Below, one piece after another: positions 9,530 to 59,789 of a stretch of DNA of 64,000 nucleotides. The notes under the pieces are model-generated. The model worked only from the letters and a program-made list of their open reading frames with translations, made no database searches and had not been told where the DNA came from. This DNA is from an uncultured Fibrobacterota bacterium (lineage in GTDB: Bacteria; Fibrobacterota; Chitinivibrionia; Chitinivibrionales; CAYFVL01), in NCBI GenBank assembly GCA_964586285.1, contig CAZPHU010000005.1, positions 3,813 to 67,812 on the forward strand, written 5' to 3'. Position 1 is the stretch's first letter. The number at the start of each line of letters is the position of its first letter. The translations under genes were made by a program, and so were the position numbers.

Positions 9530-9530
9530 G

Positions 9531-10913: not shown

Positions 10914-10927
10914 ACTACCTCCACTAG

Positions 10928-35960: not shown

Positions 35961-35984
35961 TCGAATCAATAATAGGTGAAAAAA

Positions 35985-36020
35985 AGTCAGGGAAGGAATA
36001 GTGCCTTTCCCTGACTCTTT
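35985..36020 (+). terminator. Rho-independent terminator candidate after the SDR gene
   Basis: AGTCAGGGAAGG (35985-35996), loop aatagtg, CCTTTCCCTGACT (36004-36016) with one bulge, then CTTT. Confidence 0.55.
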
Positions 36021-36089
36021 AGAATTATATGATAGATAATGATCATCGGGATATGGGGTATATTACTTTGACAATAATAGATCTTATCG

Positions 36090-36350
36090 TTACTTCGCAC
36101 AGCTGCGCGGAAAAATCCGCTTCATGGATAATCCGATGATCGGGACTATAATCAGTGCTTCAAAATAGCCTAGAGTCTGCATCCAATGTGTTTTTAGAAA
36201 ACCCAAGCCATTTTGTTGGCCTAGTTTGGCCATCTTGTCCAAGAGATGATCGCCGCAAGAAGAGTTCATCACCCGGTTTAAGCGTTTTAAAACCCCGAAA
36301 ACCCCTTCGGTCAGACTTTTATCTATTTCTAACACATTAGTAATAGACAT
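36090..36350 (-). CDS. Hypothetical small protein
   Basis: 86-aa ORF with a hydrophobic C-terminal segment 'FEALIIVPIIGLSM'. No motif recognised. Confidence 0.3.
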   Translation of the reverse strand: MSITNVLEIDKSLTEGVFGVLKRLNRVMNSSCGDHLLDKMAKLGQQNGLGFLKTHWMQTLGYFEALIIVPIIGLSMKRIFPRSCAK

Positions 36351-36604
36351 TTTGTGATTGAAATATCTATATTACCTGTTGTGGCTTTAAGGTGGTTTTT
36401 AGATTCCGCTTTCGATAAAAGCGCACTTTTTGTGGTTTTATTTGTCTTTTTGTTTTTAGTTCCTGTTTCCCTGGACTTTGACCTTGATTTTGCGGCGGTT
36501 GCCGGACTTAGCTGATGGTGGTAAAGACTTGAATGCCCACTTATTCTCAGTAAAGGCTTCAATTGACCGACAAGGTTACCTTCAGTCCATATGGCACTTT
36601 CCAT
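36329..36604 (-). CDS. Hypothetical basic low-complexity protein
   Basis: 91-aa ORF rich in K/T/S. It overlaps the next ORF by 22 nt in a different frame. Confidence 0.25.
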   Translation of the reverse strand: MESAIWTEGNLVGQLKPLLRISGHSSLYHHQLSPATAAKSRSKSRETGTKNKKTNKTTKSALLSKAESKNHLKATTGNIDISITKCLLLMC

Positions 36605-36725
36605 TTCACCGACATGTAGAGAATTGATTCGGTTATAAACAATGGATGCAAATATTCAGGACTAAAACAGATACCAGGAAGCCGAATCATGGTTCAGATA
36701 AGGTGTGTGCTGAAAGGATTTTTAG

Positions 36726-38609
36726 ATGACCGTTGAACCACGCTCAGATTCCGAAGACGCTTTTTCGGATATACCGGCTAAGAGGACTCATCGACAGCCG
36801 GATAATAAAAGGAATATCGAAGCAAAACCAACAAGTACCCGCACAGATCTGGCGGGTTTGGGGATAAATACGTCCACCGGTACCAACATTTATGTAGGAA
36901 AAAAAATCACAGGATCCTTTTTACCCGAAACCCTGCGCAGGCTTAAGGATACCACCCTGGACGGTTTTTCAATCGAGACAAAATCGAAAGACGGCAAGGA
37001 AACCGATGTATGCCCAAAGAAGACTACGCGGTTTTCGCAGACGACGATCGAAACTTCTCCAATTGCGCCTGTGAAGAACAAAGCAAAAACAGACTGTCCG
37101 ATTGTGGTCGAGGAGTCCTCGGAAAGTTCAGTTGAGAAGCAGAAGAATAAGTCTTCTAATGCCGGGCATAAGAAAGATAAGAAATCCTCACATCACATAT
37201 CGGTTGATATTTCATCCGGTTACATGGGAAGCTTGCCCTCCGAGGATGATCGTGTGTCGCTTGGTTCGGGTATTTCGGCAGGAGTTTTGGGAAGCGGAGG
37301 GATGGCCAAGGTTTATAAGATCTGGAATGAACAGCTGGAGATATTCCGCGCCGTGAAGGTACTGCTTCCTTCCAATCATCAGGAAACCTGGAGGCGATTT
37401 GAAACCGAGGCTAAGATATCGGCCAAACTTCATCATCCAAACATCGTAGAGGTATATACGATTGGGCAATGGCACGGGTTGCCCTTCATGGAGATGGAAA
37501 TGGTACAGGGAAAACCTCTGACCGATTTGATTTCCAGGTTCAAGCCTCTTCCCTGCTTTGTATGCTCAGCCGTGGCACTTCAGATTTCTCGCGCCCTTGC
37601 CTATGCGCATCGCCTGGAGGTTCTCATATACGGGAAGAAGTACAAAGGCATTATCCATCGTGATCTTAAGCCGTCAAACATAATGATTGATGAAAGCGGA
37701 GTGGTCAAACTGATGGATTTCGGTGTGGCGCGGCCGGTCGAAACCGGCCTGCATACAATCAACACCACGAATCTTGTAGGCACAATGCAGTATTTTTCGC
37801 CCGAGCAGATTAACGGGTATCCGATCGATCAGCTGTCCGACATATATTCTTTCGGGGCGGTACTGTATGAGATGATATGCGGTGTCAATCCTTTCCCGCA
37901 AAGCAAGATGGTTCAGCTGATACAGGCAAAAACAAAAAATGTGTTCAAACGCCTGGAGGATTACAGCTTGACCTTTGACGGCAGACTATCCTCCGTCTCC
38001 CAGATATGTTTACGAACCGATAAGAACACGCGTTACAATGATTCCGCGCAACTGCAGGAGCATCTGGAGGAAATTCACAGATCATTTAAGATCGGTTCTC
38101 CGGAAGATGTGGTTGTCTCATTTCTCAATGATCCGGAGTCGATGTACAGGGAAGAGAAAGAAAGATATTTACAGTCGGTACACGCGGTAGCGCAACAGCC
38201 TCCAGATCCGCCTGTTCGGAGGGTGCAAGCCGTAAACACGGATGCGGACACCGAGCGCTGCGAATCGTCATCAATTTACGATCAGGAGCAAGGCGCATCA
38301 AAAATCAGGGCTGCAAAAGAGAGTGAATTTACGAATAAACAGTTTGATATCGGGGATCAGACGCAGAAATGCGGCTTCGTAGTAACTTCCGAGAAAAGCC
38401 GGCCGGAGAATGAAGAGGAGTTTGAGGAGCCAAAGCCCAAAAGAAAACTGCCTTTGCTTGTTTTGATCATTCTTGCTTCTTTGCTTGTTGTTGTCGGTAT
38501 TATTTTGTTTCTTCGAAGTACGTCAGGTACGCAAAAGTCCGTGTCACATATTAAAAAAGGCTCGATATCATGTGTATCGTTGAGTGCGCCTTTGAAACGA
38601 GAGGTTTGA
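36726..38609 (+). CDS. Hanks-type Ser/Thr protein kinase, C-terminally membrane-anchored
   Basis: 627 aa. 'GSGGMAKVYKI...AVKVL', 'HRDLKPSNIM', 'DFGVAR', 'YFSPEQ', and a C-terminal TM 'LPLLVLIILASLLVVVGIILFL' followed by only ~30 aa. Confidence 0.9.
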   Translation: MTVEPRSDSEDAFSDIPAKRTHRQPDNKRNIEAKPTSTRTDLAGLGINTSTGTNIYVGKKITGSFLPETLRRLKDTTLDGFSIETKSKDGKETDVCPKKTTRFSQTTIETSPIAPVKNKAKTDCPIVVEESSESSVEKQKNKSSNAGHKKDKKSSHHISVDISSGYMGSLPSEDDRVSLGSGISAGVLGSGGMAKVYKIWNEQLEIFRAVKVLLPSNHQETWRRFETEAKISAKLHHPNIVEVYTIGQWHGLPFMEMEMVQGKPLTDLISRFKPLPCFVCSAVALQISRALAYAHRLEVLIYGKKYKGIIHRDLKPSNIMIDESGVVKLMDFGVARPVETGLHTINTTNLVGTMQYFSPEQINGYPIDQLSDIYSFGAVLYEMICGVNPFPQSKMVQLIQAKTKNVFKRLEDYSLTFDGRLSSVSQICLRTDKNTRYNDSAQLQEHLEEIHRSFKIGSPEDVVVSFLNDPESMYREEKERYLQSVHAVAQQPPDPPVRRVQAVNTDADTERCESSSIYDQEQGASKIRAAKESEFTNKQFDIGDQTQKCGFVVTSEKSRPENEEEFEEPKPKRKLPLLVLIILASLLVVVGIILFLRSTSGTQKSVSHIKKGSISCVSLSAPLKREV

Positions 38610-38613
38610 TAGA

Positions 38614-40350
38614 ATGATTGTTGGGAAAAGACTGAAAAAACTTCCTGTAATTGTAGGTGTTGATGCGGAAAAATGCGTCAATTGCCATGCCTGCATAACA
38701 GCCTGTCCGGTCAAGTATTGTAACGACGGCAGCGGCGACTTTGTAAGTGTAAATCCATACATGTGTATAGGATGCGGTAATTGTATAAAAAAGTGCACCC
38801 ACGGTGCCAGGTATATGGTGGATGATTTTGATCTTTTCATGGAAGATCTTGCGGCCGGGGAGAATATCATTCTTATCGTCGCACCTTCTGTAGTGGCGAA
38901 TTTTCCCAATGATTATTTGCATTTAAACGGGTGGTTTAAAAGCCTTGGGGTAAAAGCGGTATTTGATGTGAGTTTCGGTGCGGAGTTGACTGTAAAGTCT
39001 TACATAGATCTTCTTCAGAAACAAAATTCTCCCGAAACGATTATCTCCCAGCCGTGTCCTGCAATAGTAACATATATTCAGATGTATATCCCTGAGCTTC
39101 TAAATAACCTGGCTCCGGTAGACAGTCCGATGCTTCACACCATGCGAATGATCAAAAAGTACTTTCCCGAGTATGCCGAGTGTAAAATAGCCGCTCTATC
39201 GCCATGTCTGGCCAAAAAGAGAGAATTCTTCGAAACTGGAATGGGAAATTATAATATCGGCTTCAAATCGATACGTACCTGGTTGGAAAAACATGAGGTT
39301 AATCTCTGCGATTATTCACCCGATGATTATATCAATCCACCCGCTGAGAGGGCGGTTGGCTTTTCAAGCCCCGGAGGTCTTCTTAAAACTGCCGAACGCT
39401 GGGTTCCCGGCATAACGGAACAGTCACGAAAAATAGAGGGAACCGAAAACATCTATAGCTATCTTGATAAGTTATCAGAGTCGATTTTAAACCAAACAGC
39501 TCCTGTTCTGATCGACTGTCTTAACTGCGAGCGCGGTTGTAACGGCGGACCTCTGACGGTTACCGACAACGCTCCCCTTGACGACATGGAGAAAGTTGTT
39601 TCCAGACGCTTACAACAGGCTGTGGATTCGTATGAAGAAGGTGAAGTTGAGCAAGAAACTCAGCTGTCAGTTGACAGAATTGATGAGGTACTGAAACAGT
39701 ATTGGGAAAACGGACTCTATCGACGCAACTATTCGGATCTAAGTATTAACAATCGCATAATTGTTCCCTCCGAGGAGGAACTTAAAAAGATCTATAAACT
39801 GATGCGTAAAACTTGCGATGCTGACTTTTACAACTGCAGCTCCTGTGGATACGGTACCTGCGAACAAATGGCAATCGCCATATATAACGGATTGAACCGC
39901 CCCGAAAACTGTCATTTCTACCTTGCCGCCGAAGCTACGATGCAAACCGCGGAGATCTCGGAAAATGAAAAGCGACTCCGAACAATACTATCTTCCACAT
40001 CCGCAGGTTTTTGCCTTGCGGATGAAGATTACAGGCTTATTGTTGTGAACTCCGCCTTCTGCGACTATATGGGAATGGAAAGAGAAAAGCTTCTTGGTAC
40101 TACATTCCTGACCAAACAGTTTAAGCGCTGTTCGGCGGGTAATCCATATTCTTCGGAAATAAAGATCAGCCGTCCGAATGGAACCGCTGCCTACTATCTT
40201 TTCATCGCCAATCCATATATAGACGAAAACAAGGAGACAGTCGGATATTTTGCTTTGGTTGTAGATGTAAACAGATATAAGAACAATAAATCAACTACCG
40301 CAGGCACGAACGTGCCTAAGTCAAAGCCGCATAGCGACCTTCTAGCATAA
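38614..40350 (+). CDS. Sensory-type [FeFe]-hydrogenase-like protein (2x[4Fe-4S] ferredoxin + H-cluster domain + Cx2Cx4Cx16C + PAS)
   Basis: 578 aa. 'CVNCHACITACP' and 'CIGCGNCIKKC'. H-domain motifs are 'SQPCP' (vs TSCCP), 'SPCLAKKRE' (vs MPCxxKxxE) and 'CLNCERGCNGG' (vs CxxGCxxGG). 'CSSCGYGTC-x16-C' spans residues 408-433. C-terminal PAS 'LRTILSSTSAGFCLADEDYRLIVVNSAFCDYMG'. Confidence 0.85.
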   Translation: MIVGKRLKKLPVIVGVDAEKCVNCHACITACPVKYCNDGSGDFVSVNPYMCIGCGNCIKKCTHGARYMVDDFDLFMEDLAAGENIILIVAPSVVANFPNDYLHLNGWFKSLGVKAVFDVSFGAELTVKSYIDLLQKQNSPETIISQPCPAIVTYIQMYIPELLNNLAPVDSPMLHTMRMIKKYFPEYAECKIAALSPCLAKKREFFETGMGNYNIGFKSIRTWLEKHEVNLCDYSPDDYINPPAERAVGFSSPGGLLKTAERWVPGITEQSRKIEGTENIYSYLDKLSESILNQTAPVLIDCLNCERGCNGGPLTVTDNAPLDDMEKVVSRRLQQAVDSYEEGEVEQETQLSVDRIDEVLKQYWENGLYRRNYSDLSINNRIIVPSEEELKKIYKLMRKTCDADFYNCSSCGYGTCEQMAIAIYNGLNRPENCHFYLAAEATMQTAEISENEKRLRTILSSTSAGFCLADEDYRLIVVNSAFCDYMGMEREKLLGTTFLTKQFKRCSAGNPYSSEIKISRPNGTAAYYLFIANPYIDENKETVGYFALVVDVNRYKNNKSTTAGTNVPKSKPHSDLLA

Positions 40351-40385
40351 GAAAGCGGCGGTATAAACCACCGCTTTCTTATCTC
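40349..40385. terminator. Bidirectional terminator between the convergent hydrogenase-like and CotH genes
   Basis: GAAAGCGGCGG (40351-40361), loop tataaa, CCACCGCTTTC (40368-40378) with one mismatch, T-rich on both sides. Confidence 0.6.
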
Positions 40386-40458: not shown

Positions 40459-43230
40459 CTATTGACAAGAAGCTGTGAATTGCGTCAACTTTTCAGGAGA
40501 AATGGTTCTCTTAGGCTCCTTATTCCCGTCACTCCACTTCACGAACGATTTCCCCGTTGCCGGAATGACTTCCAAGGTCAAGGGAGAACCGCTGAAATAG
40601 GTTCCGGTATAAGGGTTTTCGAATATTTCCAGACCATTTATCAGAACAGCTCCATTCTCAACGTTTATGCTTAACTCGTACTCATCACCCAAATCAAAGT
40701 ATCTTTTCATTTGCTCAACAAAATATCCCTTGCGGTCCTGAGCAAATTCGTAGAGTTTATCAACTTCGTAATCCCAGTTCTTGAAACCCCACCGCTCGTA
40801 ATGACGTGATATTTCCGAACTGTAAATAGATTTAAACTCATCTATGCGCTTCTCTATCCTCTTTGTACGAAAGTTTGTATTTAGAAGCGTAGAAGTTATG
40901 GAAATAAAATCCGCCTTGAATTGTTCGTTTTGCAGCAGTGTTCTGAAAAGAAAAGTTGCATTTGCTCCATTTGGATAATCGGGTCCGATATCATTTGTAC
41001 AAAACTCAAACATATCAACATCGATATCCGAGTGTCCTTGAAATCCAAAATCGGTATCGTACAATATCCAGCGCCATTTCGAACCCGGCTGATAGGATCT
41101 CCAGAACTTGATGTTATTGGCGGGCCAGTCGGTATTTCCATAGAACATTTCCGAAGCCATATAAGTAGCATAGTTTAGAAGGTCAGCCTGGGATCTTACA
41201 TGTTGGTAAGGTTCATCTTTACTGATATCGTTTGCGCTCATGTAGTTTGTGAGTTCATCATATCGGGTTCGGTTGCCTGAGGTCACATCACCGATTGCCT
41301 TGATTATATCGAAATTTCCTTCTTCCAAACCGTAATTTGTCCAGAGGTAATCTTCGTTAAGCTTTTCGCGCAGATTGTAAATACCCCAATATGCCCCGTT
41401 TATATAAACTACCACCGGTCGGTACTTCTGGTAATCAAGATCCCGATCCTCAAGTAATGAACACATTAATACGTCACGAAACCCAGTTTTCCCACAGTTA
41501 CTTCCGTTATTTCTAAGAACAAACTTTTTAAACTTATCAAGATGCGGATATTCTGGAAACAGGGTCTGCTTCAATTCCGAGACACCGTATTGCCCTCGAA
41601 AATGAACCGATAAAGACTTCTGTTCGTTTGCTCTGCTCCAGTTACCAAATATCCGCAACCCAGCGTCATGAGCAAACATTTTGCTTTTGCTCTCATCATA
41701 CATTTCCACGGAAACCGCCACCTCCTTTTCGCCCCAGAAATTTGCGCCGAAATAAGGGAATACAGGACTCGCATGTTTTCCGTAAGAATATATGCCAGTG
41801 TCGGGATCAAAAAGCTGAGAAGAATCTGTCACCAGAGATACCACAGCCATATCGGTATTCTCTCTAATAAAAACACTTGCCGTATTCACAGAAGATGAAT
41901 ACTCGCCTCTTTTATAAGCGCGGGCTCGCACGACGGCGGTGGAGTCAAGTTTGAACGGCCTTTCATAAAGTATGCTTGACGTATCCGGAACTGATCCGTC
42001 CAGCGTATAGCGAATGATTGTGTTTGCGGGGGCGGCAATTCTTATATTCACCGGTGACTGAAAAAAACCACCTCCGGGTAAAATCTCCGGGGCAGGTGTT
42101 CTTTTTGCATGGCCTTCCGTCGCATTTTTTTCACCGGGTGTGGGCTGATCCGTTATCGAAACGAGGGATGAATCGGTCAAATTCCTGCGCATTGTAAATC
42201 CGCCGGGCAAATCCCTAAGATCCATTGAGTCCACAACTTTCCCATTCGAATCGGAGAGAAAAACGGTCTCGTTTCCTCCGAGAGAAAAATTAGTGTGGAA
42301 ATGTTTTTCACAAGTGATGAAATAAAAACCTTCAACCGTAAAAGATACCGATCCGACAAAATTATCGGGATTAGCCACCTCTACGGCATAGAACTTTGTA
42401 AGATCAAGCATCCCGTCTTTAATCAAAGGAATAGTGTAGATATCGCCTTCTTTGCCCGTACCGGTCAACTCGTGCTTGTATGACATCCATTCTTCTATGC
42501 CCTGTTGGTTTATGCGGATCAAAACCTTTTTATCCTTTTCGATGTATCCTTTGAATAGCAGACGATCATATCGTGACATATTAACGGTATCTGTTTTTCG
42601 CCATCCATCCCAACCCATATGTATAACAGCTGAGCGCCAACCAAGTTGAGTGTTTTGAGCCATATTCATTGTTGCGGAGAGGACGGTATTTGTATCTCCT
42701 TCCAAAACACCACGATACCCTCTTTCAAGCCTGTAAGGCTCGATACTACTTTTCCCCAAACCACTCTGATCATCCTCATCCGCCCATGCATATGTATACC
42801 TGGTTATACCGCCAACCGTATCACCTCCCTGATCAGCTTCCCGATAATCCTTTCCTGAAGCCATTATAAGGATAAATTGTCCCGGAGCAATAACGGTATC
42901 GGGAATTGCCCATCGGGTAAGCGAGTCTCTATCGTCTGAAAGGTAGTATGAGCCCAAATCTATCGAATCATCCGACCTGTTGTACAACTCAATCCAGTCC
43001 GGATCGTCATAGTCTCTGTCTTTTAGACGCTCGTTTACAGCCGCCACTTCACTGATTATCAGGTCGGGAAACTCGTTTTTCTCTTCGACTCCCTCCACCG
43101 GATTAAAAATGAAAGGCAGCGCAGTTTCTTCTCTGTCGGTGCATGAAAAAACCAAAGCAAAACAAAAGAAAACAAAAAAACAAAGACTCAATCTTCTATT
43201 CATATATCTGAAATAAGAGGGTTGTTTCAT
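40459..43230 (-). CDS. CotH-family (atypical kinase fold) lipoprotein with lamin-tail domain and chitobiase-C/Fn3-like module
   Basis: 923 aa. Lipobox 'FALVFSC'. LTD 'LIISEVAAVN...DWIELYNRSDDSIDLGSYYLSDD'. 'IIRYTLDGSVPDTSS'. CotH core 'FVLRNNGSNCGKTGFRD...VVVYINGAYWGIYNLREK...WRWILYDTDFGF'. Confidence 0.85.
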   Translation of the reverse strand: MKQPSYFRYMNRRLSLCFFVFFCFALVFSCTDREETALPFIFNPVEGVEEKNEFPDLIISEVAAVNERLKDRDYDDPDWIELYNRSDDSIDLGSYYLSDDRDSLTRWAIPDTVIAPGQFILIMASGKDYREADQGGDTVGGITRYTYAWADEDDQSGLGKSSIEPYRLERGYRGVLEGDTNTVLSATMNMAQNTQLGWRSAVIHMGWDGWRKTDTVNMSRYDRLLFKGYIEKDKKVLIRINQQGIEEWMSYKHELTGTGKEGDIYTIPLIKDGMLDLTKFYAVEVANPDNFVGSVSFTVEGFYFITCEKHFHTNFSLGGNETVFLSDSNGKVVDSMDLRDLPGGFTMRRNLTDSSLVSITDQPTPGEKNATEGHAKRTPAPEILPGGGFFQSPVNIRIAAPANTIIRYTLDGSVPDTSSILYERPFKLDSTAVVRARAYKRGEYSSSVNTASVFIRENTDMAVVSLVTDSSQLFDPDTGIYSYGKHASPVFPYFGANFWGEKEVAVSVEMYDESKSKMFAHDAGLRIFGNWSRANEQKSLSVHFRGQYGVSELKQTLFPEYPHLDKFKKFVLRNNGSNCGKTGFRDVLMCSLLEDRDLDYQKYRPVVVYINGAYWGIYNLREKLNEDYLWTNYGLEEGNFDIIKAIGDVTSGNRTRYDELTNYMSANDISKDEPYQHVRSQADLLNYATYMASEMFYGNTDWPANNIKFWRSYQPGSKWRWILYDTDFGFQGHSDIDVDMFEFCTNDIGPDYPNGANATFLFRTLLQNEQFKADFISITSTLLNTNFRTKRIEKRIDEFKSIYSSEISRHYERWGFKNWDYEVDKLYEFAQDRKGYFVEQMKRYFDLGDEYELSINVENGAVLINGLEIFENPYTGTYFSGSPLTLEVIPATGKSFVKWSDGNKEPKRTISPEKLTQFTASCQ

Positions 43231-44717
43231 TGCACTTCTCCCGGATTACCGCCTATTTTTTCGGAACGTTTCCAATTCTTTGGCAAAGGTCCACAACCGC
43301 CCACGCGCACCAGTGAATACCCTTCGCCGTCCGCGGCCGCCGCCCAGGCCCGGCGGTCATCATACGTAATCTGGTCGACATTTGCATACACCGGTTTGTG
43401 TTCTCCACTCTCTGAGACGTAGGAATCTACAGGTTGTGCTATGCTTACAGTCTCCCCTTTATTGGATAATTTTCCAGAGTAAAAGAATACTTGTACCGAA
43501 TTCCCCCTGTATTTCTCTTTAAATAGAGTGGAATCGTTTGCGTTTACTAAAAGTATTGTTTCTTCGGCACCGATAACCATGTCTTGCGGGAAGGTGAAAT
43601 CCACTCCACGCACTTTCCAACTAAACGGCATGTATGGAGTCGTTCCAAGAACAACCGCAGTATCGCCGAGGTTGGTTATCTCAAGAAATTCAAAATTTCC
43701 GGGTGAGGGATGATACATTAGTTCCGATATGATTATGTGTCTTGAACATACTGTTGAGTCATTATGTTTTCCCGGCGTAGGTTGGGAAAGAGGCCCGACA
43801 GTAAGGCGGTCCTCAAGTATTCCGATCGACTTATCCCTGACAGCTCCGGATGTCTGCATTCCACTACAGTATCCGGTCATTTTTCCGTTTAAGGCGGATA
43901 GTAGAAAGATGCATTGTCCCGCATTTCTAAAATCCAACTCCGGCGCATCCTCGGATTTTATGACAAAGAATCCACCCGGTTTCATGACCGCATTTGACTT
44001 TACAGTATAATACTCTGAAAAATCTTTTCGTGTTGTAATAAGCCATCCCGTAATGTCAACTATCTTCGATTCACCGTTAAACAGCTCGATGAATCCGCCC
44101 GAATCATTCCAATTGGGTTTGAATTCATTTATCAATACTTTTGAATAAGGAACGGAAGGATCAGTGAATCCGGGGGAGCCCCCTGTGTCGGCGCTGTTTC
44201 TCCAGTAATCATGATAATCCTGTTTGTAAACGGGTGAATCATCTATGCTCACCAGCGAGTACCCCCTACCATCAGCGAGAACAGGCCAGGGTAGCTCATT
44301 ATCCCAGCTCATCTCCGTTATTACCGAACCGAACGGTGAAATTAACTCAATGCTTTCCCCTTCATTTGCAAGTCGTCCGGTGAAAGGCCCGGCACAAGGA
44401 CTGTTTGGGTATCGTTTCCTGTATTCTTCGGTAGAATTTGTCACCACCATATATGCTCCGGAGGATAAGACCGGAGCCTCTGGACCAAACTGAAAATCAA
44501 TACCACCCGTAATGCGGATCCCCTTAAGCTCTACATCCACATCACACACATTTCGTATTTCAACATACTCAAGGGTATCGGTCTCTGAAAACCTGTACAT
44601 TATTTCTGTGAAGGCAAGCGGCATGTCGTCATAATCCGCAGCCGTTAAACCTGGTGATGCACATTTGATAGTACAAAGATAAAGTATAACGCAAAGAAAC
44701 CGTTTTACATTTTTCAT
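43227..44717 (-). CDS. Secreted protein with three lamin-tail domains (LTD)
   Basis: 496 aa with a signal peptide. LTD starts are 'FTEIMYRF..LEYVEIRN', 'LINEFKPN...GFIELFN' and 'IISELMYHP..FEFLEITN', each followed by 'L.N.GE.i.L'. ATGA overlap with the CotH start. Confidence 0.8.
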   Translation of the reverse strand: MKNVKRFLCVILYLCTIKCASPGLTAADYDDMPLAFTEIMYRFSETDTLEYVEIRNVCDVDVELKGIRITGGIDFQFGPEAPVLSSGAYMVVTNSTEEYRKRYPNSPCAGPFTGRLANEGESIELISPFGSVITEMSWDNELPWPVLADGRGYSLVSIDDSPVYKQDYHDYWRNSADTGGSPGFTDPSVPYSKVLINEFKPNWNDSGGFIELFNGESKIVDITGWLITTRKDFSEYYTVKSNAVMKPGGFFVIKSEDAPELDFRNAGQCIFLLSALNGKMTGYCSGMQTSGAVRDKSIGILEDRLTVGPLSQPTPGKHNDSTVCSRHIIISELMYHPSPGNFEFLEITNLGDTAVVLGTTPYMPFSWKVRGVDFTFPQDMVIGAEETILLVNANDSTLFKEKYRGNSVQVFFYSGKLSNKGETVSIAQPVDSYVSESGEHKPVYANVDQITYDDRRAWAAAADGEGYSLVRVGGCGPLPKNWKRSEKIGGNPGEVQ

Positions 44718-45487
44718 TATATAGTCCTTCGGTAAAATGCCGGTGTATCGGGGCAGTCCGATTCAAACCACTCACACCTAAACACTTCATTCATGGCATT
44801 CGCGTATTTAGAAAAACTTGCTTTTTTCAGACCGAAATAGTGTATGAGATCAAAAAACCATAATGGAAAAGTTTGACGATATGTTTTTAGCTCAAGAATT
44901 ATATTACATCCGAGTGGGAAGATTTCCTCAAAGTCGTATGAGTATAGCCTGCCGTTGTCGGGGATAAGAGAATAATCATTCTGCCGGTGACATACCAGTT
45001 CCTTATCAAAAGTTATGCGGGCATATTTGTCTACTGTCGAAAACCAGGCCAGTCTTTTGTATTGCGTAAATACCTTCGGAGCACAGTTAAAAAAATGATA
45101 TTTCCCCAAGAACTCATCATCGTCCCGACTATCCAAATACTGCTGAGGTTCGCTCGTAAAAGGCACTCTTGTTTTTCTTATCACCATTCCTTCACGATAC
45201 TTTACCTCCGCAAAGTACGGCGGTAGCGGATTCTCCCCATAAGATCTCATTCTCAAGTTGAATCGCTTAGGCTCTTGCTCCACACGCCATTTCAAAAAAA
45301 GATAGTCTTCAGTATCGAAATAAAGTGAATTGATCGTATAAAAACCACCGGGTACTAACTTTGAATACGGGTCCATATCGCAATATGATTTAATAAACTC
45401 CGAGACGGGATAAACGTAGTCTTGCGGTATGAGATATTTCAGCTCATATCGTGACAGTCTTTGTTTTTCAAAGGAATGGCTATTCAT
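44717..45487 (-). CDS. VTC-domain (polyphosphate polymerase / CYTH-like tunnel) protein
   Basis: 256 aa, cytoplasmic. 'LSRYELKYLIP', 'INSLYFDT', 'FNLRMRSY', 'AEVKYREG...RKTR'. These resemble the bacterial proteins annotated as polyphosphate polymerase domain-containing. Confidence 0.75.
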   Translation of the reverse strand: MNSHSFEKQRLSRYELKYLIPQDYVYPVSEFIKSYCDMDPYSKLVPGGFYTINSLYFDTEDYLFLKWRVEQEPKRFNLRMRSYGENPLPPYFAEVKYREGMVIRKTRVPFTSEPQQYLDSRDDDEFLGKYHFFNCAPKVFTQYKRLAWFSTVDKYARITFDKELVCHRQNDYSLIPDNGRLYSYDFEEIFPLGCNIILELKTYRQTFPLWFFDLIHYFGLKKASFSKYANAMNEVFRCEWFESDCPDTPAFYRRTI

Positions 45488-46754
45488 TACCTTTTATCAC
45501 CTGAAAGTTTTTATCTAAATAGTTTTTCAGCTCACCGTTAGTGAGCATGCCGGATATATTAAGCAGCTTTACATACGCGATGTAAATATCAAACCTGAAT
45601 TCTTCTATTTCCATGGCGCTTTCAAGAATACTTTCACGAGTCTTGAGAATGAGTAAAGGATCGGTGCCGGCAACACGAAGATACTCCTTCATTTCCTCAT
45701 TTCTATTGAGATCATCGGTTCTTTTTTCCAGAATTGTTATTTGCTTGAGCATTATTTGCATATCGCTTTTAAGCTCGGTGATTCTTTGGTGAATCTCTTT
45801 TCTCTTTTCAAGGTACTTGCCTTCGTCTTTAAGTAAAGCTGCTTTACGACGATGTATATCATTCTTATCGGGAATCGGAATGGATATACCGGTACCGACA
45901 TGCATGTTTTCATAAGCGGGAGTGCGATCCTTACGTATGCCTTCATAAATTCTATGATCATATCCAAATTCTAAAAACTGAACCAGGTCTCTACCCTCCG
46001 ATCGCTCAAGTTCATAGCGGCTTTGTGATTCCTTCAACTCCCACCAGGCAAGCTGGATATGCACGTTGAGAGTATCAGGATTAATGTGCTCCAGCAAACT
46101 GTCGATGTCTCTTAGACGCACAAAATTTGTAGTATCGAAATTGTTTTCCGCTGTAAACGGACGATATTCGGATATCTCCCTGATTATGTCTTCAAGTTTT
46201 TTTTCGTTACGGATAATTTGCAGACGCATTTTCGTGAGTTCATCCTGAGCCTCAACAAGGTTTGAAAAATCAAAATCCTCCTCATTCATTCTGCTTCTGT
46301 AAACAGTAATTTTGTCCTCGTATACTTCCCTAAGCTCAAGCCTGTGGCGCATCTCTATTCTCTTGTGAATAAGCTCCAGAACCAATTTATAACGATCATA
46401 GAGCTTTTCATTCAACATTTCTTTTTCGGCCCACCGATGATAATGGAGTCTGTTGTGCGACAACCTTTTTCCGGTAAAAGTCTCTCCTAAACCGCGCATC
46501 TCCAAGCGGGCCGCGAATTTATGTCTATTGACATCCAGCCCGTCCAAGTCATATCGAAGCTCCACTCCGTCAAGAAATGGGACTGACCACAAGGAATTCT
46601 CAAGATAAGCTACTGTTTTTCTTCGGCTTTCCAGTCGCATGTCCTCATCGGCTCCCGCCAAAAAAGACTCAACCGCAACAGTTTGTGCATCACTGCCAAA
46701 AACTAATCCCAGAAGTATAAGAACTTTCAACCTTATCATATCTCTTTTCGCCAC
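45480..46754 (-). CDS. Putative outer-membrane factor (TolC-like) protein
   Basis: 424 aa. Signal peptide 'MIRLKVLILLGLVFGSDAQ' and long helical, charged repeats. The assignment rests on composition and context only. Confidence 0.45.
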   Translation of the reverse strand: MAKRDMIRLKVLILLGLVFGSDAQTVAVESFLAGADEDMRLESRRKTVAYLENSLWSVPFLDGVELRYDLDGLDVNRHKFAARLEMRGLGETFTGKRLSHNRLHYHRWAEKEMLNEKLYDRYKLVLELIHKRIEMRHRLELREVYEDKITVYRSRMNEEDFDFSNLVEAQDELTKMRLQIIRNEKKLEDIIREISEYRPFTAENNFDTTNFVRLRDIDSLLEHINPDTLNVHIQLAWWELKESQSRYELERSEGRDLVQFLEFGYDHRIYEGIRKDRTPAYENMHVGTGISIPIPDKNDIHRRKAALLKDEGKYLEKRKEIHQRITELKSDMQIMLKQITILEKRTDDLNRNEEMKEYLRVAGTDPLLILKTRESILESAMEIEEFRFDIYIAYVKLLNISGMLTNGELKNYLDKNFQVIKGNE

Positions 46755-46758
46755 CTTT

Positions 46759-47742
46759 TTACTTACTGCTGATTATTACTTTCTCTCCCAGAAGAAACCT
46801 GTTGCGCTCAGGTATCCTAATAGAAACTTCCCTACCCCAAACCGATATGTCCGGACGGCTTCTCAATCGTAGAGGAAATTCCACGATCCGCGCCCCCACT
46901 CCAACCACTTCTCCGGTCACGAAATTGTGGTTATCGGCAACAGACTTAACCGATACCACATCACCCCTTTGAATACTGCTGTAGATTTTCTCGTGAATGT
47001 AGCCGCGGATAATTTCGGGGGTCTGTGAATGAACCGTCATTATCGGTTCAAATGCCGAAACCTTTTCACCAACGCCATAATTTACCGATCCCACCACTCC
47101 ATTTATCACCGAGGTTAAAACCAGATTTCGGAGCTGCGTCACAATAAGATCTTTCTCTCTACTTAAGTTTTGAATCCTTACCTTTTGAGTCTCCGCCTTT
47201 TCTCCCCTACTCTTTTTCAGAATTTCAATCTGATATCTCATCGATTGCTCTTCCAACTGTAGTTGCTTTTGATAATTTGAGATTTTTTTCATTAAAGGAT
47301 TCTCCGAATCATCCATCACAACCGGTTGCGTTATGCTTTCGAGTCTGGATGTAAGCTCAAGATTTTTGCGCATTTTCCTTTCAAGCTCGTCAATAGAGTA
47401 TTGGATTTCGCTTTTTTTCTTTACGAAATCGGCCCTTACGGCAGCTATCCTCGACTGAAGTTCATCCCCGTCTATATTCTTGAAAGTTGCATAGTTATTC
47501 AGTTGCTGTTCGATGATCGCCAATTTAAGGCGAAGCTCCGGCATATCCAAAAGGGCCAAAGTATCACCGATTGATATTGATTGACCGGGTATGGCGGTTA
47601 CCTGCTTTACTTCGACCGCCTTCTCGAAATTCAGTTTCGTTTCGCGGCTTTCGGCGATTCCGTAAAACTGTGCCCTCTCCGAACTGAACCGACTCGACAT
47701 ACCGATCAACACCAACACGGCAGTAAGCCAGATTAAGATCAT
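46759..47742 (-). CDS. HlyD-like membrane-fusion (periplasmic adaptor) protein
   Basis: 327 aa. N-terminal TM 'MILIWLTAVLVLIG', lipoyl-like 'VTAIPGQSISIGDTLALLD', a ~150-aa coiled coil, and a C-terminal beta region 'GVVGSVNYGVGEKVSAFEPIMTV...GYIHE'. Confidence 0.7.
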   Translation of the reverse strand: MILIWLTAVLVLIGMSSRFSSERAQFYGIAESRETKLNFEKAVEVKQVTAIPGQSISIGDTLALLDMPELRLKLAIIEQQLNNYATFKNIDGDELQSRIAAVRADFVKKKSEIQYSIDELERKMRKNLELTSRLESITQPVVMDDSENPLMKKISNYQKQLQLEEQSMRYQIEILKKSRGEKAETQKVRIQNLSREKDLIVTQLRNLVLTSVINGVVGSVNYGVGEKVSAFEPIMTVHSQTPEIIRGYIHEKIYSSIQRGDVVSVKSVADNHNFVTGEVVGVGARIVEFPLRLRSRPDISVWGREVSIRIPERNRFLLGEKVIISSK

Positions 47743-47752
47743 CCGTTTGATA

Positions 47753-48466
47753 TTACACCTCCGCCGTTAATGTCTGGTTTATAAGATTGATCGATTTTAA
47801 GGTATCGATTTTTTGAAGAGCATGCGCCAGCTCGGCTGAATTATTTGTGTTTTTTAACTTGATCTGATATGCATATTCTATTCTTTTTCCCTGTGAAGCC
47901 TCTCTGACCGTCACCAGAACAAACTGCCTGCAATAAGCACGAAGCACTGTTTCGATACTCTGCTTGACTCTAGGCTCATCTTCCACATTGAAACGAACGA
48001 TACCGTCAAAGGCGTTGGTGCGTATGGATGGAATGAAATGCAAGGCGGCGGAAGCGGTGCAGAAGGCAACCGTACCAATAACTGCTACAGTGTATGCGTT
48101 TACGCCGCATCCAATTCCAGCCGCAAGGGCGGCAAACATGAAAATAATATCCCGAGAATCCTTAAAATTGGTCCTGAACCGAACGATGGCCAAAGCACCG
48201 ATCATTCCAAGGCCGCGAGCCAGACTATCTCCGATGGCCTGCATGATAGTGGATGCCACAATGGAGCTAAGTACCAGGGATTGGACAAAGTTGTGATAAT
48301 ATGAAAGTCCGCGAAATGTTCGCTCATAGGTAAATGCTATCAGCATCGAAAGCACAAAAGCCAGAATGGATGAGAAAAGAACCGTTATTAATCCCGGATT
48401 TATGGAACTTGTCTGTACGGTAAAATAATCTAACACCTCTACCTGCCTTAATTGGAATGTGTACAT
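47753..48466 (-). CDS. DUF4956-family integral membrane protein
   Basis: 237 aa, ~4 TM. 'GMIGALAIVRFRTNFKDSRDIIFMFAALAAGIGCG' matches the family hallmark as I remember it. It has a soluble C-terminal ~90 aa. Confidence 0.75.
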   Translation of the reverse strand: MYTFQLRQVEVLDYFTVQTSSINPGLITVLFSSILAFVLSMLIAFTYERTFRGLSYYHNFVQSLVLSSIVASTIMQAIGDSLARGLGMIGALAIVRFRTNFKDSRDIIFMFAALAAGIGCGVNAYTVAVIGTVAFCTASAALHFIPSIRTNAFDGIVRFNVEDEPRVKQSIETVLRAYCRQFVLVTVREASQGKRIEYAYQIKLKNTNNSAELAHALQKIDTLKSINLINQTLTAEV

Positions 48467-49816: not shown

Positions 49817-52444
49817 TTATCTTTCGGCAATGATCGAAACAGGCTGGGTAAAATGACCTGCCCCGTCGAAATACCTGATCACGTACATGCCGGAGCCCAG
49901 AGTGTTTTGAAGGTTTAGTGTATGTCTGCCAGTACTCAATTGTTTTAGTTGAGCAGACAAATCCTTAACCAATTTTCCGGAAACAGAGTACATCTTAAGA
50001 GAAGAGGCGGAAGGTCTCTTCAATAAAAGATCCAGCATTAATTTCGAACCCTTTGTCCGAGCGAAAAACGCAGCCTGGCCCGATTTACGAATAAAGGGAC
50101 TGGCAAGCTCCACCTTATCCTGCATTTTAAGTTTTACATTATCGATGTACACGTTCCTGTCAGATAAACCTGCATAGAATCCAATACGAGCCTGGTCATC
50201 GGTAGGATAAACCATTGTGAAGGTAAAAGAGTAGTTTTGGGGTTGATCAGAGAGAGTTATCTCTGTTTCGGCGTCACCCGTATATGATTCATACGGATCG
50301 CTTGACATGCCCACATCCGCCACGATTATCCGACTGGTGTCAGCCCAGGCATCGAAACTGAATTCATAAACACCCCCTTGTATCAGTTCAATCCCAAGCT
50401 GTGTCATTTGTACACCCCAGCCGACCTCACCACCATCTCTAATATCAAGCACAAACACGCCGCTGTCGGATACATATTCCCTGCCTAGTCCGCCCTCATG
50501 ATATGTTACCGACCATTCATTATCCCCATCAGAAAAGTCTCCGTTGCGTACGATTTCATCCACAAGACCGAATCCGGCACGAATCGAAAGATCTTTATCT
50601 ACCGTCAACGTAATCGTGGTATCTTCGCCATGTTCGGCGCCGCTCCAGCCCCTGAAAATCTCACCACTATCCGAAACGGCAGTCAATTGCACTGAACTAC
50701 CTTTTTCAAAGAGTTTCTGATTCGGTTCAACCAAAACGCTTCCCGGCCCCTCAACGGATATATTGATTGCAAACATAGTCTGCTCGACACGAGGCCCTTC
50801 GCCCATAACGGCGTCAACTGCCGCCAGCAGAGCCGTCATAGGTGAACTCCAGTTAATTGCAACTTCGTTAGTTGTATAACTTCCATAAACGTCTTCATAA
50901 TCACCTGCTCCCCCGTTTGGACCGCCGACCAGAAACCCTGGTATCATTTCTTCGATCCCGTCGGCTCCCGAGGGACGATGATGAGGATTCCTTGCCGCCT
51001 TCAAACCAAATCCCGTCAAAAAGGAGTGTGTAGTAGCGTTTTTCCCAAGCAGGTAATCGATACATTCCGCGGCACCTTTGATATACTTTTTATCTTCTGT
51101 AAGAGTATATGCGACAACCAGACAAAGACCGTCATTGGCCAGGAACGAATTCGATCCCCAGTTAAAAATGAGTCTTGGTATTCTATATGCATAGGTTTCA
51201 ATTTCATCCAACAACTCATCCGCCGCAACTATGAAAGAGCTTTTAATTGCATGAAAAGACGCGCTGTCCAACTCGTTGTCGGCAATTGCAAGAGAAAGTG
51301 GCGACATACTTTTAACGAACTGCCAACGAGGCGCATACCTGTACTCGTATAGATTTTCAACCACAATATTGCGGTACTCTTCTTTACCTGTAGTAATAAA
51401 CAGCTCCGTTGCGGCCCACAGTCTCTCATCCGCGACTTGTTCATCTTCATACGCTCCAGTACCAACGCCGGAGGGATTTTCATCAAATAACTCCGAGGGA
51501 TTTTCTTCAGCCCATACCCAGGCACTTTCGGCCTGTGCCAGACACCCTGCAGCAAATGTACTGTCCAAAGCTACATATATGCGTCCTGCCATTGCCATCA
51601 CTGCTGCAAAATCCAGTGTCGCGGCGGTTGATTTTCCTATAAAATACCGAGTTGCATTCGCCTCGTGAGGCATTTCGGTACCGGTAAAGTTTAGAGTTGT
51701 AAGCTTGTGGAAAACACCACCGTCACTATCCTGCATGGTTTTCATCCATTCAAGTTCATACCGCACCTCATCCAGAAGGTCATCCTGGGAATTACCGGAT
51801 TCGGGTATGTTTAGAACGCTGTCGCCAAAGTAAGTACCAAACATCTCATAAAATTGCAATAGAGTTCCCACCGTTATGCCCGCGTTGACTATATATTTAC
51901 CGTAATCACCAGCATCATACCAGCCGCCGGGTGATGAAGCCTTACCGCCGTCCTTTCCGGTAGAGGAATGATATACGACCGCAGTGTCCGGATGTCCGGC
52001 CGGCCTGGCGAATTTGCCTGCATACTGCGGTTCCAACTCCATGCTTGCTCGCTGATAGTAGAAGGATTTTAGTGATGCCGCGGCTGCATCTGCATAGATT
52101 CGATTAGATATTCTAAAAGGATAGGAAGTACCCAAACCTTCTGTTCTGATCCAGTAAGTTCCAGGCTCGGTTAATGCGGAGAAATCCGCCTGCTTAACCG
52201 CTTCCTGCCATTCTCTTCTCCACGCAGTCTTTTCCTCAGACAAAATGTCCCTAAAAACCACACTGTCCCGTGCATCAATCACCTCAAAAACCGAGTCGAC
52301 AGCCCCAATTATAATGGCGATCTTATTTGCCGAAGGATAGTAACCTACCTGATTGATTCTGTAGTTATCTTCATCTCCCCACGCTTTGAAAAACATACAA
52401 CTTACTACAATTATTAGCCACATTTCCGTTCTTTTTCTCTTCAT
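49817..52444 (-). CDS. GH9 endoglucanase: Ig-like N-domain + GH9 + InlB-B-repeat-like + CBM4/9-like + T9SS-type C-terminal sorting domain
   Basis: 'YRINQVGYYP' (CelD_N-like), 'GWYDAGDYGKY', 'NPHHRPSG', 'LVGGPNGG', 'YTTNEVAINW', 'FRGWSG', and the C-terminal 'LKMYSVSGKLVKDL...LGSGMYVIRYFDGAGHF'. ATG 52444 (MKRKRTEMWLIIVV...) preferred. Confidence 0.9.
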   Translation of the reverse strand: MKRKRTEMWLIIVVSCMFFKAWGDEDNYRINQVGYYPSANKIAIIIGAVDSVFEVIDARDSVVFRDILSEEKTAWRREWQEAVKQADFSALTEPGTYWIRTEGLGTSYPFRISNRIYADAAAASLKSFYYQRASMELEPQYAGKFARPAGHPDTAVVYHSSTGKDGGKASSPGGWYDAGDYGKYIVNAGITVGTLLQFYEMFGTYFGDSVLNIPESGNSQDDLLDEVRYELEWMKTMQDSDGGVFHKLTTLNFTGTEMPHEANATRYFIGKSTAATLDFAAVMAMAGRIYVALDSTFAAGCLAQAESAWVWAEENPSELFDENPSGVGTGAYEDEQVADERLWAATELFITTGKEEYRNIVVENLYEYRYAPRWQFVKSMSPLSLAIADNELDSASFHAIKSSFIVAADELLDEIETYAYRIPRLIFNWGSNSFLANDGLCLVVAYTLTEDKKYIKGAAECIDYLLGKNATTHSFLTGFGLKAARNPHHRPSGADGIEEMIPGFLVGGPNGGAGDYEDVYGSYTTNEVAINWSSPMTALLAAVDAVMGEGPRVEQTMFAINISVEGPGSVLVEPNQKLFEKGSSVQLTAVSDSGEIFRGWSGAEHGEDTTITLTVDKDLSIRAGFGLVDEIVRNGDFSDGDNEWSVTYHEGGLGREYVSDSGVFVLDIRDGGEVGWGVQMTQLGIELIQGGVYEFSFDAWADTSRIIVADVGMSSDPYESYTGDAETEITLSDQPQNYSFTFTMVYPTDDQARIGFYAGLSDRNVYIDNVKLKMQDKVELASPFIRKSGQAAFFARTKGSKLMLDLLLKRPSASSLKMYSVSGKLVKDLSAQLKQLSTGRHTLNLQNTLGSGMYVIRYFDGAGHFTQPVSIIAER

Positions 52445-52659
52445 CTTAAGAAAAAACCCCTTTCGTACCAAAAACACACTTAATTCATAATACAATATAA
52501 GCTCAGATACCTTTCCGGCAGTTGGCGCAGGCGCCATCAAATTTTCTAATTGTTTTAATTGTTCAAAACGTGATATATAGGCGCCGAGAGAAGGGGACAA
52601 TGAGAAAGCCTGATTTTTGATTCACTTGGGAAGCCAAACTATTCAGTCCATTAACACAA

Positions 52660-53064
52660 TCATCCATTGGAGTGTGGATTCTTGTAAAGCCTCGGCCGAC
52701 GACTCAGTAGATCAACCGTCTTTTTGTTCATCTCTACCACGCGGGAGGCCAGCGCTTTTGCAATCATATACGCAGACGACGGGCTGTTCTCGAAAAGACG
52801 GGTAACATCTTCGATGTACATCAATTCGGCATAGGTTGCGGCAACGACAGTTGCTTGCCTTCTCCCCCCCAACAACGCCTCAATCTCTCCAACATACTCC
52901 CCTCTTTCGGTTATTCGGGTGAGTGTAGTTCCACGAAATGAGACCTCCAGTACACCGGCTAGAAGAACATACATTCCTCGAGCGAGTTTCCCTTCTTTGA
53001 GGATAATCTGTCCCGGTTCAAACGCTACAATTTTTCTTTTTCCACTCATTTCAAACTTTATCAA
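52660..53064 (-). CDS. Cyclic-nucleotide-binding domain protein
   Basis: 134 aa. 'FEPGQIILKEG...MYVLLAGVLEV...GEYVGEIEALLGGRRQATVVA'. The start is either TTG 53064 (a 4-nt overlap with the upstream gene) or ATG 53049. Confidence 0.8.
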   Translation of the reverse strand: MIKFEMSGKRKIVAFEPGQIILKEGKLARGMYVLLAGVLEVSFRGTTLTRITERGEYVGEIEALLGGRRQATVVAATYAELMYIEDVTRLFENSPSSAYMIAKALASRVVEMNKKTVDLLSRRPRLYKNPHSNG

Positions 53065-56461: not shown

Positions 56462-56815
56462 TTATAGGCTGTTAATCGCCTCATCCAATTCGTCGTATAT
56501 TTCCAGTAGAGATGTAGCTCCGATAATTTCGATTATTTCGTATACGTTTTCATTTACATTGGCTATTTTGAATGATCCGCCCTTTTCTTTAGCGGCTTCG
56601 CTAAAGTGCAGTAATATGCCCAGTCCGGTACTGTTAACATAGCGCAACTTGGCAAAATCTGCCACAATTACAGGAAACCCCTCACTAAAAAGATTCGATA
56701 TTTTCACCCGCACCGAATCAACATTGGTGGCATCAAGATCCCCTATGAATCGAACCAGTTTTACATTGTCTTTACCGGCTATATTTTCATATTCTAATTC
56801 GATTTGAGACTCCAT
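56462..56815 (-). CDS. STAS-domain anti-sigma-factor antagonist (SpoIIAA/RsbV-like)
   Basis: 117 aa. 'LRYVNSTGLGILL' aligns to the DSSGLG phospho-site loop. Confidence 0.85.
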   Translation of the reverse strand: MESQIELEYENIAGKDNVKLVRFIGDLDATNVDSVRVKISNLFSEGFPVIVADFAKLRYVNSTGLGILLHFSEAAKEKGGSFKIANVNENVYEIIEIIGATSLLEIYDELDEAINSL

Positions 56816-56818
56816 ATA

Positions 56819-57610: not shown

Positions 57611-57647
57611 TTAAAATTTTCCCCTGAGGGTGAAATATTTGTACCCG

Positions 57648-59490: not shown

Positions 59491-59789
59491 GACTCGATCT
59501 CCCTTTTTATCATATCATTTGCACGGTATACCCAGCTCAGTATCTCGGCTACAGCTTTATACAATTCCGACGGGATTTCCTGATCCAAATCGACTTTTGC
59601 CAAAAACTCCACCAGCTCATCATCGCGAGTAATTGGAATCCCATTCTCATCGGCTATTCGCCTGATCCTATTCGCGCAACTACCCGATCCTTTGGCCACG
59701 ACCCGTGGAGCAGATTCAGTCTCACTATTATATCGCAGCGCAACCGCTTTTTCCGACAATAGTTTTTTTTCTTTTTTACTTTCTTTCAC
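59487..59789 (-). CDS. FlhB C-terminal-domain-like small protein (EscU/YscU/HrcU switch family, YlqH-like)
   Basis: 100 aa. 'AVALRYNSETESAPRVVAKGSGSCANRIRRIADENGIPITRDDELVEFL'. Confidence 0.85.
   Translation of the reverse strand: MKESKKEKKLLSEKAVALRYNSETESAPRVVAKGSGSCANRIRRIADENGIPITRDDELVEFLAKVDLDQEIPSELYKAVAEILSWVYRANDMIKREIES

Follow-up and report, generated by a model that had tools for sequence, protein, structure and literature searches.

The window, a 64,000-nucleotide (64-kb) stretch of DNA from an uncultured Fibrobacterota bacterium, contains a gene for a Hanks-type Ser/Thr protein kinase followed directly by a gene for a HydS-like [FeFe]-hydrogenase homologue, which we call HydS. 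How putative sensory [FeFe]-hydrogenases transduce a signal has been asked, and their role is called putative (PMC8924675, PMC13104023, PMC8163306). An earlier reading of the window from the letters alone (the sequence-only reading) had suggested that this gene pair is an H2/redox-to-Ser/Thr-phosphorylation signalling module. As far as sequence analysis goes, that reading is supported.

The locus and its kinase

The two open reading frames (ORFs) are separated by a gap of 4 nt, and the features of both genes and of their flanks are collected in Table 1. ORF calls and the sequence itself agree with the sequence-only reading on the coordinates of this junction and on a Shine-Dalgarno sequence inside the kinase gene. 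The short gap implies co-transcription, and translational coupling of the two genes is probable. Downstream, a terminator-like hairpin starts 7 nt past the HydS stop codon, where the HydS gene converges with a CotH gene. We read the pair as a two-gene operon because of the junction, this hairpin and the long intergenic region that precedes the kinase gene. That region presumably holds the operon promoter. Its sigma-70-like matches (for example 36344-36373) numbered 8 against 7.9 expected in shuffled sequence, which is chance level, and an Rfam search of the same 765 nt gave zero matches at E<=1. Two small antisense ORFs of 86 and 91 aa (36090-36604, - strand) also lie there and may be spurious.

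Table 1. Features of the kinase-HydS locus, in window coordinates (AF2, AlphaFold2; pLDDT, predicted local distance difference test; TM, transmembrane)
Feature	Coordinates	Strand	Basis and remarks
Long intergenic region upstream of the kinase gene	35961..36725	+	765 nt; no ORF with a family match
Hanks-type (PknB-like) Ser/Thr kinase gene, tail-anchored product	36726..38609	+	ORF, 627 aa, ATG start, TGA at 38607-38609
Disordered N-terminal region of kinase (aa 1-167) with short conserved motifs	36726..37226	+	AF2 pLDDT <50 for aa 17-167
Kinase catalytic domain (aa 182-440)	37269..38045	+	Pfam, alignment, AF2, Foldseek
Three-helix extension following the kinase domain (aa 440-490), conserved	38043..38195	+	AF2 helices 440-454, 459-468, 470-490; block pLDDT 88-97
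Single C-terminal TM helix of kinase (aa 575-599)	38448..38522	+	AF2 helix; Kyte-Doolittle maximum 3.41 at aa 578-596
Kinase tail past the TM helix	38523-38606	+	28 aa over these coordinates; 28-31 aa, by where the helix end is set
GAGAGG Shine-Dalgarno-like hexamer for the HydS gene	38599..38604	+	Read from sequence; within the kinase coding sequence, 9 nt before ATG
Group C (M2f, HydS-like) putative sensory [FeFe]-hydrogenase gene	38614..40350	+	ORF, 578 aa, ATG start
Two ferredoxin-type [4Fe-4S] motifs of HydS (aa 14-66)	38653..38811	+	Fer4 families (Pfam)
H-cluster domain of HydS (aa 84-313), sensor-type active site	38863..39552	+	Fe_hyd_lg_C, PF02906, E 4.5e-31
HydS C-terminal Cx2Cx4Cx16C [4Fe-4S] motif (C408, C411, C416, C433)	39829..39915	+	PF04060, aa 406-434
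HydS PAS domain (aa 454-553)	39973..40272	+	PAS_9/PAS_4/PAS; TIGR00229 E 6e-11; matches span aa 450-557
Bidirectional terminator-like hairpin closing the operon	40357..40375	.	GGCGGTATAAACCACCGC stem-loop, T-rich tails on both strands

Pfam placed a Pkinase domain (PF00069) at aa 187-438 of the kinase with an E-value of 6.7e-47, and the VAIK Lys, HRD, DFG and APE-type motifs were all present. Throughout an alignment of 36 sequences, K211, H311-R312-D313, N318, D331-F332-G333 and S358-P359-E360 were invariant, as were the activation-loop threonines T344 and T353, with T347 nearly so. An AlphaFold2 model built on the same 36 orthologues showed a folded kinase at about aa 170-440, a disordered linker at aa 501-571 and a disordered tail at the end. 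When this model was searched with Foldseek, the top PDB matches were Mycobacterium tuberculosis PknB and Staphylococcus aureus Stk1, at 28-33% identity.

Besides its catalytic domain, the kinase consists of an intrinsically disordered region, a helical extension, a TM anchor and the tail of 28-31 aa. Within the disordered N-terminus the orthologues retain conserved islands (K59-K60, T62, T76, S82-I83-D84-T85, S159, D161-I162 and P171). The three-helix extension is likewise conserved in the kinase family, at G457, E460, F466 and P470, and is a candidate regulatory or docking module. Foldseek also aligned the kinase model with full-length AMPK alpha over about 380-390 columns, past the catalytic domain, at a root-mean-square deviation of about 15 A. 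As a lead only, the modelled extension may resemble an autoinhibitory or UBA-like bundle.

Pfam and NCBIfam scans and the AlphaFold2 model revealed no sensor domain in the kinase. The protein scored 252 bits against the PASTA-kinase equivalog NF033483, below its cutoff of 450; PASTA repeats are absent, and only 28-31 residues follow the TM helix. Since this helix stands at the extreme C-terminus with a short tail behind it, any input would have to be cytoplasmic. The kinase described by the sequence-only reading thus recurs here largely intact, with a canonical catalytic core, a C-terminal TM anchor followed by a tail of some 30 residues, and no sensor domain of its own, a description now refined by the conserved N-terminal motifs and the helical module after the catalytic domain. 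Its disordered N-terminus, given there as 190 aa, is disordered but shorter, at about 170-180 aa.

HydS and its active site

Pfam and NCBIfam recovered in the 578-aa protein every domain that had been claimed for it: two ferredoxin clusters, the H-cluster domain, the Cx2Cx4Cx16C motif and a PAS domain. Every metal-binding cysteine was invariant across 41 sequences, among them the Fer4 cysteines (C21, C24, C27, C31, C51, C54, C57 and C61) and the four of the C-terminal cluster. The AlphaFold2 model of HydS had a mean pLDDT of 85.5 and a predicted template modelling score (pTM) of 0.75, and its PAS region, at pLDDT 81-90, formed a five-stranded PAS-like sheet. We presume the PAS domain to be the signal-output domain. 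In a Foldseek search with the model, the best 50 PDB matches were all genuine [FeFe]-hydrogenases, aligned over about 440-470 columns with E-values down to 6e-19.

Active-site residues were read from a HMMER alignment to the hydrogenase CpI. The H-cluster ligands are retained, CpI C300, C355, C499 and C503 corresponding to C148, C198, C305 and C309 of HydS, and K358 is kept as K201. The proton-relay residues are replaced (C299 by P147, E279 by S129, S319 by A167, R286 by K136 and E282 by D132), as are the methionines M353 (S196) and M497 (L303). Among 117 HydS relatives, the four H-cluster cysteines and K358 were invariant; P, S and A at C299, E279 and S319 were common to them, L stood at M497 in all and S at M353 in nearly all. 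The 117 relatives with this signature include proteins fused to HisKA/HATPase domains, to methyl-accepting chemotaxis protein (MCP) domains or to PP2C domains.

These residues bear on whether HydS might instead be an ordinary catalytic, H2-evolving hydrogenase held at the membrane by the anchored kinase. The complete fold and metal sites are what such an enzyme would have. However, none of the relay residues C299, E279 and S319 is kept, a PAS domain and signalling-fused relatives are ill-suited to a metabolic enzyme, and no electron-transfer partner genes are adjacent, so that we regard a catalytic role as highly improbable.

The domain order of HydS is the one named M2f, which is equated with group C (TmHydS), and group D/M2e (TamHydS) has no PAS domain (PMC13104023). 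Putative sensory hydrogenases of groups C and D alike are without the proton-transfer residues of group A (PMC8163306). Because HydS has the M2f architecture and relatives with signalling fusions, keeps the H-cluster ligands and has lost the proton relay of group A, it fits a group C-type (M2f) putative sensor module, the HydS-like sensory type to which the sequence-only reading had assigned it. Outside its own clade, the nearest relatives share 46-58% identity with its sensor part and carry fused HisKA/HATPase, MCP or PP2C domains. A rough neighbour-joining tree, drawn without support values, had the HydS clade monophyletic (35/35) and sister to the forms fused to histidine kinase, PP2C or MCP. 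HydDB lists three group C subtypes only, C1 (histidine kinase-linked), C2 (chemotactic, MCP) and C3 (Ser/Thr phosphatase-linked), in agreement with the linkages that had been named as usual for sensory hydrogenases. Neither the HydS protein nor its flanks hold a fused or co-transcribed histidine kinase, MCP or PP2C, by which C1-C3 are assigned, and judged in this way the HydS clade is not among the three listed subtypes.

A Nar1/NARF-like Fe-S protein, raised earlier as a possible identity of the 578-aa product, was rejected. All of the best 120 homologues had the H-domain, most of them with a PAS domain and the rest with MCP or PP2C output, and their named sources were bacterial metagenome-assembled genomes (MAGs) throughout. 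The nearest relatives are bacterial PAS-containing [FeFe]-hydrogenase homologues.

Conservation of the pair and the direction of signalling

To examine the pair elsewhere, we scanned one genome per GTDB species for HydS, retrieved the best 80 of 340 genome matches, and ran tblastn with the window kinase over 6 kb around each HydS locus. Within these best 80, a kinase homologue lay directly upstream in 18 of 18 Fibrobacterota loci, representing 18 species, and no Hanks kinase was detected within 6 kb at any of the 62 group C loci from other phyla (0/62); given this sample, rarer kinase pairings outside the clade are possible. Contig look-ups at loci L001-L003 showed a Pkinase gene directly upstream of HydS amid wholly different flanks. 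Since L012 of the scan and L001 are one site, the three look-ups and 17 scan loci make 20 distinct loci. At all 20, which belong to Fibrobacterota/Chitinispirillaceae, the kinase is directly upstream of HydS and on the same strand. Conservation across genomes, proposed earlier as a check on the pair, is thus borne out. Assemblies that carry both genes include GCA_023436205.1 and GCA_942490635.1. MAGs of Fibrobacterota, Chitinispirillaceae and Chitinivibrionales are the sources of the closest 38 HydS homologues (54-100% identity); of three more distant stand-alone homologues (P0052, P0085 and P0045), none has the kinase at its locus (0/3).

At 18 of these loci the two genes are separated by -7 to +68 nt, and at the remaining two of the 20 by 180 and 218 nt. 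When flank ORFs were clustered over 21 loci (the window and the 20 others) in search of a third conserved gene, only the kinase and HydS emerged; other flank families occurred in at most 4 of the 21 loci or were antisense shadow ORFs. Pairwise identities of the kinase and HydS proteins correlate (r = 0.90), which fits inheritance of the two as a unit. Because the arrangement recurs in 20/20 loci with differing flanks and in 0/62 loci of other phyla, we take the adjacency to be more than chance. This bears directly on whether the two are merely co-transcribed neighbours with independent functions. Such a view has in its favour that a chimeric query found no fusion proteins in its best 120 matches and that neither a third conserved partner nor a known target is encoded close by. 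It is nevertheless very hard to reconcile with a pair kept in 20/20 other loci despite complete flank turnover, with gaps that are often negative or below 70 nt, and with two proteins that diverge in step, and we give it very little credence.

A C-terminal TM helix followed by a tail of 4-37 aa was present in 19 of the 20 other HydS-linked kinases. Two close relatives that are not HydS-linked, P0169 and P0174, are 59-62% identical in the catalytic part and have no TM anchor. Kinases of the P0169 type comprise the disordered N-terminus and the kinase domain, end past the first post-kinase helices and are followed by an Exo_endo_phos gene. At two loci (L088, 4001-6534; L089, 4001-6405) a soluble sister kinase of 365-467 aa, 59-62% identical in the catalytic part and with no TM helix, precedes an Exo_endo_phos (endonuclease/exonuclease/phosphatase) gene in place of HydS; the neighbourhood, which is conserved, includes genes for an ABC-F ATPase and a radical SAM/SPASM protein. 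A more distant paralogue, P0183, is also not HydS-linked; in this protein and those related to it, an ectodomain of about 270 aa follows a TM helix. In a rough neighbour-joining tree the unlinked soluble kinases nest inside the HydS-linked clade, a placement that suggests secondary loss of the anchor and HydS, or duplication.

Because the same sensor module is wired to three other output types in relatives, because a PAS domain stands at the output end of HydS while the kinase has no input domain, and because the two genes are inseparable in this clade, we think it most likely that HydS supplies the missing kinase input. We put at about evens the proposal that HydS is the input module of the kinase, reads H2 through its H-cluster and acts by direct contact; the ligand, the contact, the direction of signalling, the surfaces and the targets are what we infer. 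HydS, a soluble [FeFe]-hydrogenase homologue that would be built for sensing rather than turnover, would report the partial pressure of H2 by the redox and ligand state that its H-cluster takes up. From there a conformational change would be relayed through the region of the C-terminal cluster and PAS domain, and direct protein contact would alter how active the tail-anchored Hanks kinase is, the product of the gene just upstream. The surfaces in contact might be the HydS PAS domain on one side and the post-catalytic helices or conserved N-terminal motifs of the kinase on the other. The kinase would autophosphorylate on its conserved activation-loop threonines and go on to phosphorylate cytoplasmic targets, and the outcome may be tuned fermentation and H2 production in H2-evolving polysaccharide fermenters. 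The cultured relatives Chitinispirillum and Chitinivibrio are H2-producing fermenters with [FeFe] hydrogenases only (PMC4814513), and in Ruminococcus albus a group C sensor cluster is strongly responsive to H2 level (PMC6776011). Taken with the invariant H-cluster ligands, the H2-producing relatives lend indirect support to H-cluster assembly in the organism of the window.

HydS could also feed the kinase while sensing a cue other than H2, either the redox state of the ferredoxin pool through its accessory clusters or damage to the H-cluster by O2 or CO. The three accessory [4Fe-4S] sites are invariant, and H2 sensing has been demonstrated for no group C or D enzyme (PMC8924675, PMC13104023). 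Accessory clusters alone can hardly explain the invariance of K358 and of the four H-cluster cysteines in 117 relatives, and the physiology of R. albus suggests H2 as the cue (PMC6776011); we consider a non-H2 cue unlikely.

Signalling might also run the other way, with the kinase upstream and HydS its substrate or client. The kinase would be cued at the membrane or by other proteins and would phosphorylate HydS or recruit it to the membrane, and in this way would turn a slow hydrogenase, or the binding of its partner, on or off. The kinase gene is the leading one of a probably translationally coupled pair, the conserved N-terminal motifs and membrane anchor of the kinase could take other inputs, and related kinases function without HydS. 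On the other hand, the tail beyond the membrane is 4-37 aa long and not conserved, leaving no obvious membrane-side sensor. HydS, for its part, has the PAS domain and shares its active-site signature with relatives fused to histidine kinase, MCP or PP2C outputs, and these two features argue that it is the input end. We judge the reversed direction distinctly unlikely.

Several points weigh against HydS as an H2-reading input module. Physical contact between the kinase and HydS is something we infer, and a chimeric query (kinase aa 181-470 plus HydS aa 80-322) returned no fusion covering both halves among its best 120 matches, coverage being at most 57%. Biochemical signalling has been shown for no group C enzyme, and the C-terminal cluster of the group D enzyme TamHydS is unresponsive to H2 (PMC13104023). 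The hydE, hydF and hydG genes and catalytic hydrogenase genes are absent within the 64-kb window. The kinase-first gene order is uninformative on the direction of signalling. Finally, the P0169/P0174-type sub-lineage of closely related kinases exists without HydS, so that the kinase family can work without it. We rate as somewhat short of an even chance the further claim that the pair represents a fourth output class of sensory [FeFe]-hydrogenase, in which a stand-alone HydS is complexed with a sensor-less, tail-anchored Hanks kinase whose activity is H2-dependent.

The two-gene, clade-wide module is a simple and separable test system, in which the sole conserved partner of HydS is a kinase without an input domain. 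To work on Hanks kinases it adds a suggestion as to how a membrane kinase that lacks a sensor may be cued. If HydS does feed the kinase with H2 as the cue, this would be the first bacterial Hanks kinase with a gas input read by a dedicated metalloenzyme partner, and a two-protein system that reads out group C H2 sensing as phosphorylation. In ecological terms, the partial pressure of H2 would then be tied to Ser/Thr phosphorylation in uncultured Fibrobacterota that ferment polysaccharides.

Surroundings and comparison with known systems

FHA and partner-switching proteins of the window had been named in the sequence-only reading as plausible downstream readers of the kinase. The genes exist, but at a distance of 16-23 kb and with no conserved connection to the pair. 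The gene of the FHA protein (63007-63711, + strand; FHA at aa 23-87, E 2e-23 in Pfam) is about 23 kb from that of the kinase; a strict FHA regular expression run on the window gave zero matches, though Pfam finds this protein. It stands beside flagellar-export-like genes, namely a FlhB C-terminal fragment (59487-59789) and a weak FliK-like match (59794-61686). The partner-switching set (56462-58136, - strand) comprises a STAS protein (117 aa), a STAS-HATPase_c_2 fusion (263 aa) and a HATPase_c_2 protein (162 aa), the antagonist-kinase fusion being unusual.

Several other genes of the window lie on the - strand. Just downstream of the pair, a cluster at 40459-48466 holds genes for a 923-aa CotH kinase-like protein that carries LTD and chitobiase C-terminal domains, for a 496-aa protein with three LTD domains and for VTC-domain, OEP-like and DUF4956 proteins, as well as a 327-aa ORF; it has the look of a secreted module related to CotH and polyphosphate. 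The 927-aa product of 49817-52600 is a GH9 cellulase that has CelD_N and CBM4_9 domains, consistent with a polysaccharide-degrading Fibrobacterota host, and its gene adjoins one for a small cNMP-binding protein (52660-53064). The region 9531-12442 encodes a response regulator of the sigma-54-dependent type (REC-AAA-HTH_8), overlapped by a hybrid kinase with REC-PAS-HisKA-HATPase domains. Among the other loci, one from a Pelobacter-labelled MAG (L058, 6010-13251) has an MCP-fused group C hydrogenase (627 aa) followed by maturase genes, with hydG at 9002-10426 (TIGR03955, 490 bits) and hydF at 12013-13251 (TIGR03918, 557 bits), as well as ORFs at 7929-9005 (possibly hydE) and 10559-12016. At a Bacteroidetes locus (L025), hydG lies about 3 kb from HydS.

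TmHydS of Thermotoga maritima, a characterised group C/M2f enzyme, resembles the window HydS in the order of two [4Fe-4S] clusters, H-domain, Cx2Cx4Cx16C cluster and PAS domain. Both are stand-alone proteins with no fused output domain, and both have lost the proton-relay cysteine. We know of no Hanks kinase partner of TmHydS. By its published description, the two diiron-framing methionines are Ser and Gly in TmHydS, whereas the window HydS has Ser at M353 and Leu at M497, a pair that it shares with TamHydS of group D (PMC8163306). TmHydS may be atypical of group C at these sites.

The HydDB subtypes C1-C3 share with the window HydS an identical active-site signature, 46-58% identity over the sensor part and the principle of one H-cluster sensor module coupled to a signalling output. 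Their outputs are fused or adjacent histidine kinases, MCPs or PP2C phosphatases, whereas the output of the window module would be a separate, membrane-anchored Hanks kinase encoded upstream. This kinase is like PknB, Stk1 and PrkC in catalytic fold and motifs, activation-loop threonines and single-pass topology; those kinases carry a PASTA ectodomain, and the window kinase has neither PASTA nor any other extracytoplasmic sensor domain.

In R. albus, HydS signalling to an adjacent Ser/Thr kinase has been proposed, as cited in PMC5707799. The R. albus HydS cluster and hfsABCD of Thermoanaerobacterium saccharolyticum share with the window a PAS-containing sensor hydrogenase and proposed Ser/Thr phosphorylation signalling (PMC5707799, PMC6776011). 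Deletion of hfsB in T. saccharolyticum led to regulatory phenotypes. The R. albus and hfs operons include a catalytic hydrogenase (HydA2/HfsD) and a PP2C phosphatase, whereas the window module has no such neighbours and its kinase is PknB-like. Co-location of the Hfs/R. albus type was not found in the window, where the flanks hold SDR, HAD hydrolase and CotH/LTD/VTC genes. The kinase of the R. albus and Hfs operons we take to be an RsbW/SpoIIAB-like GHKL protein rather than a Hanks kinase.

The closest mechanistic analogues are the [NiFe] systems HoxBC-HoxJ of Ralstonia/Cupriavidus and HupUV-HupT of Rhodobacter, in which a slow sensor hydrogenase complexes with a separate kinase and controls it by H2 (PMC5707799, PMC8163306). 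HoxJ and HupT are histidine kinases that themselves bear the PAS domain, and the active site is of the [NiFe] type; in the window the site is of the [FeFe] type, it is the hydrogenase that has the PAS domain, and the kinase belongs to the Ser/Thr type. Full-text searches of a literature library returned no link between [FeFe] hydrogenases and Hanks kinases, in keeping with the earlier impression that the pairing is uncharacterised. Because of the R. albus proposal, the concept of H2 acting through Ser/Thr phosphorylation is not new. What appears new is the Hanks-type, tail-anchored partner and its organization with HydS as an isolated two-gene module.

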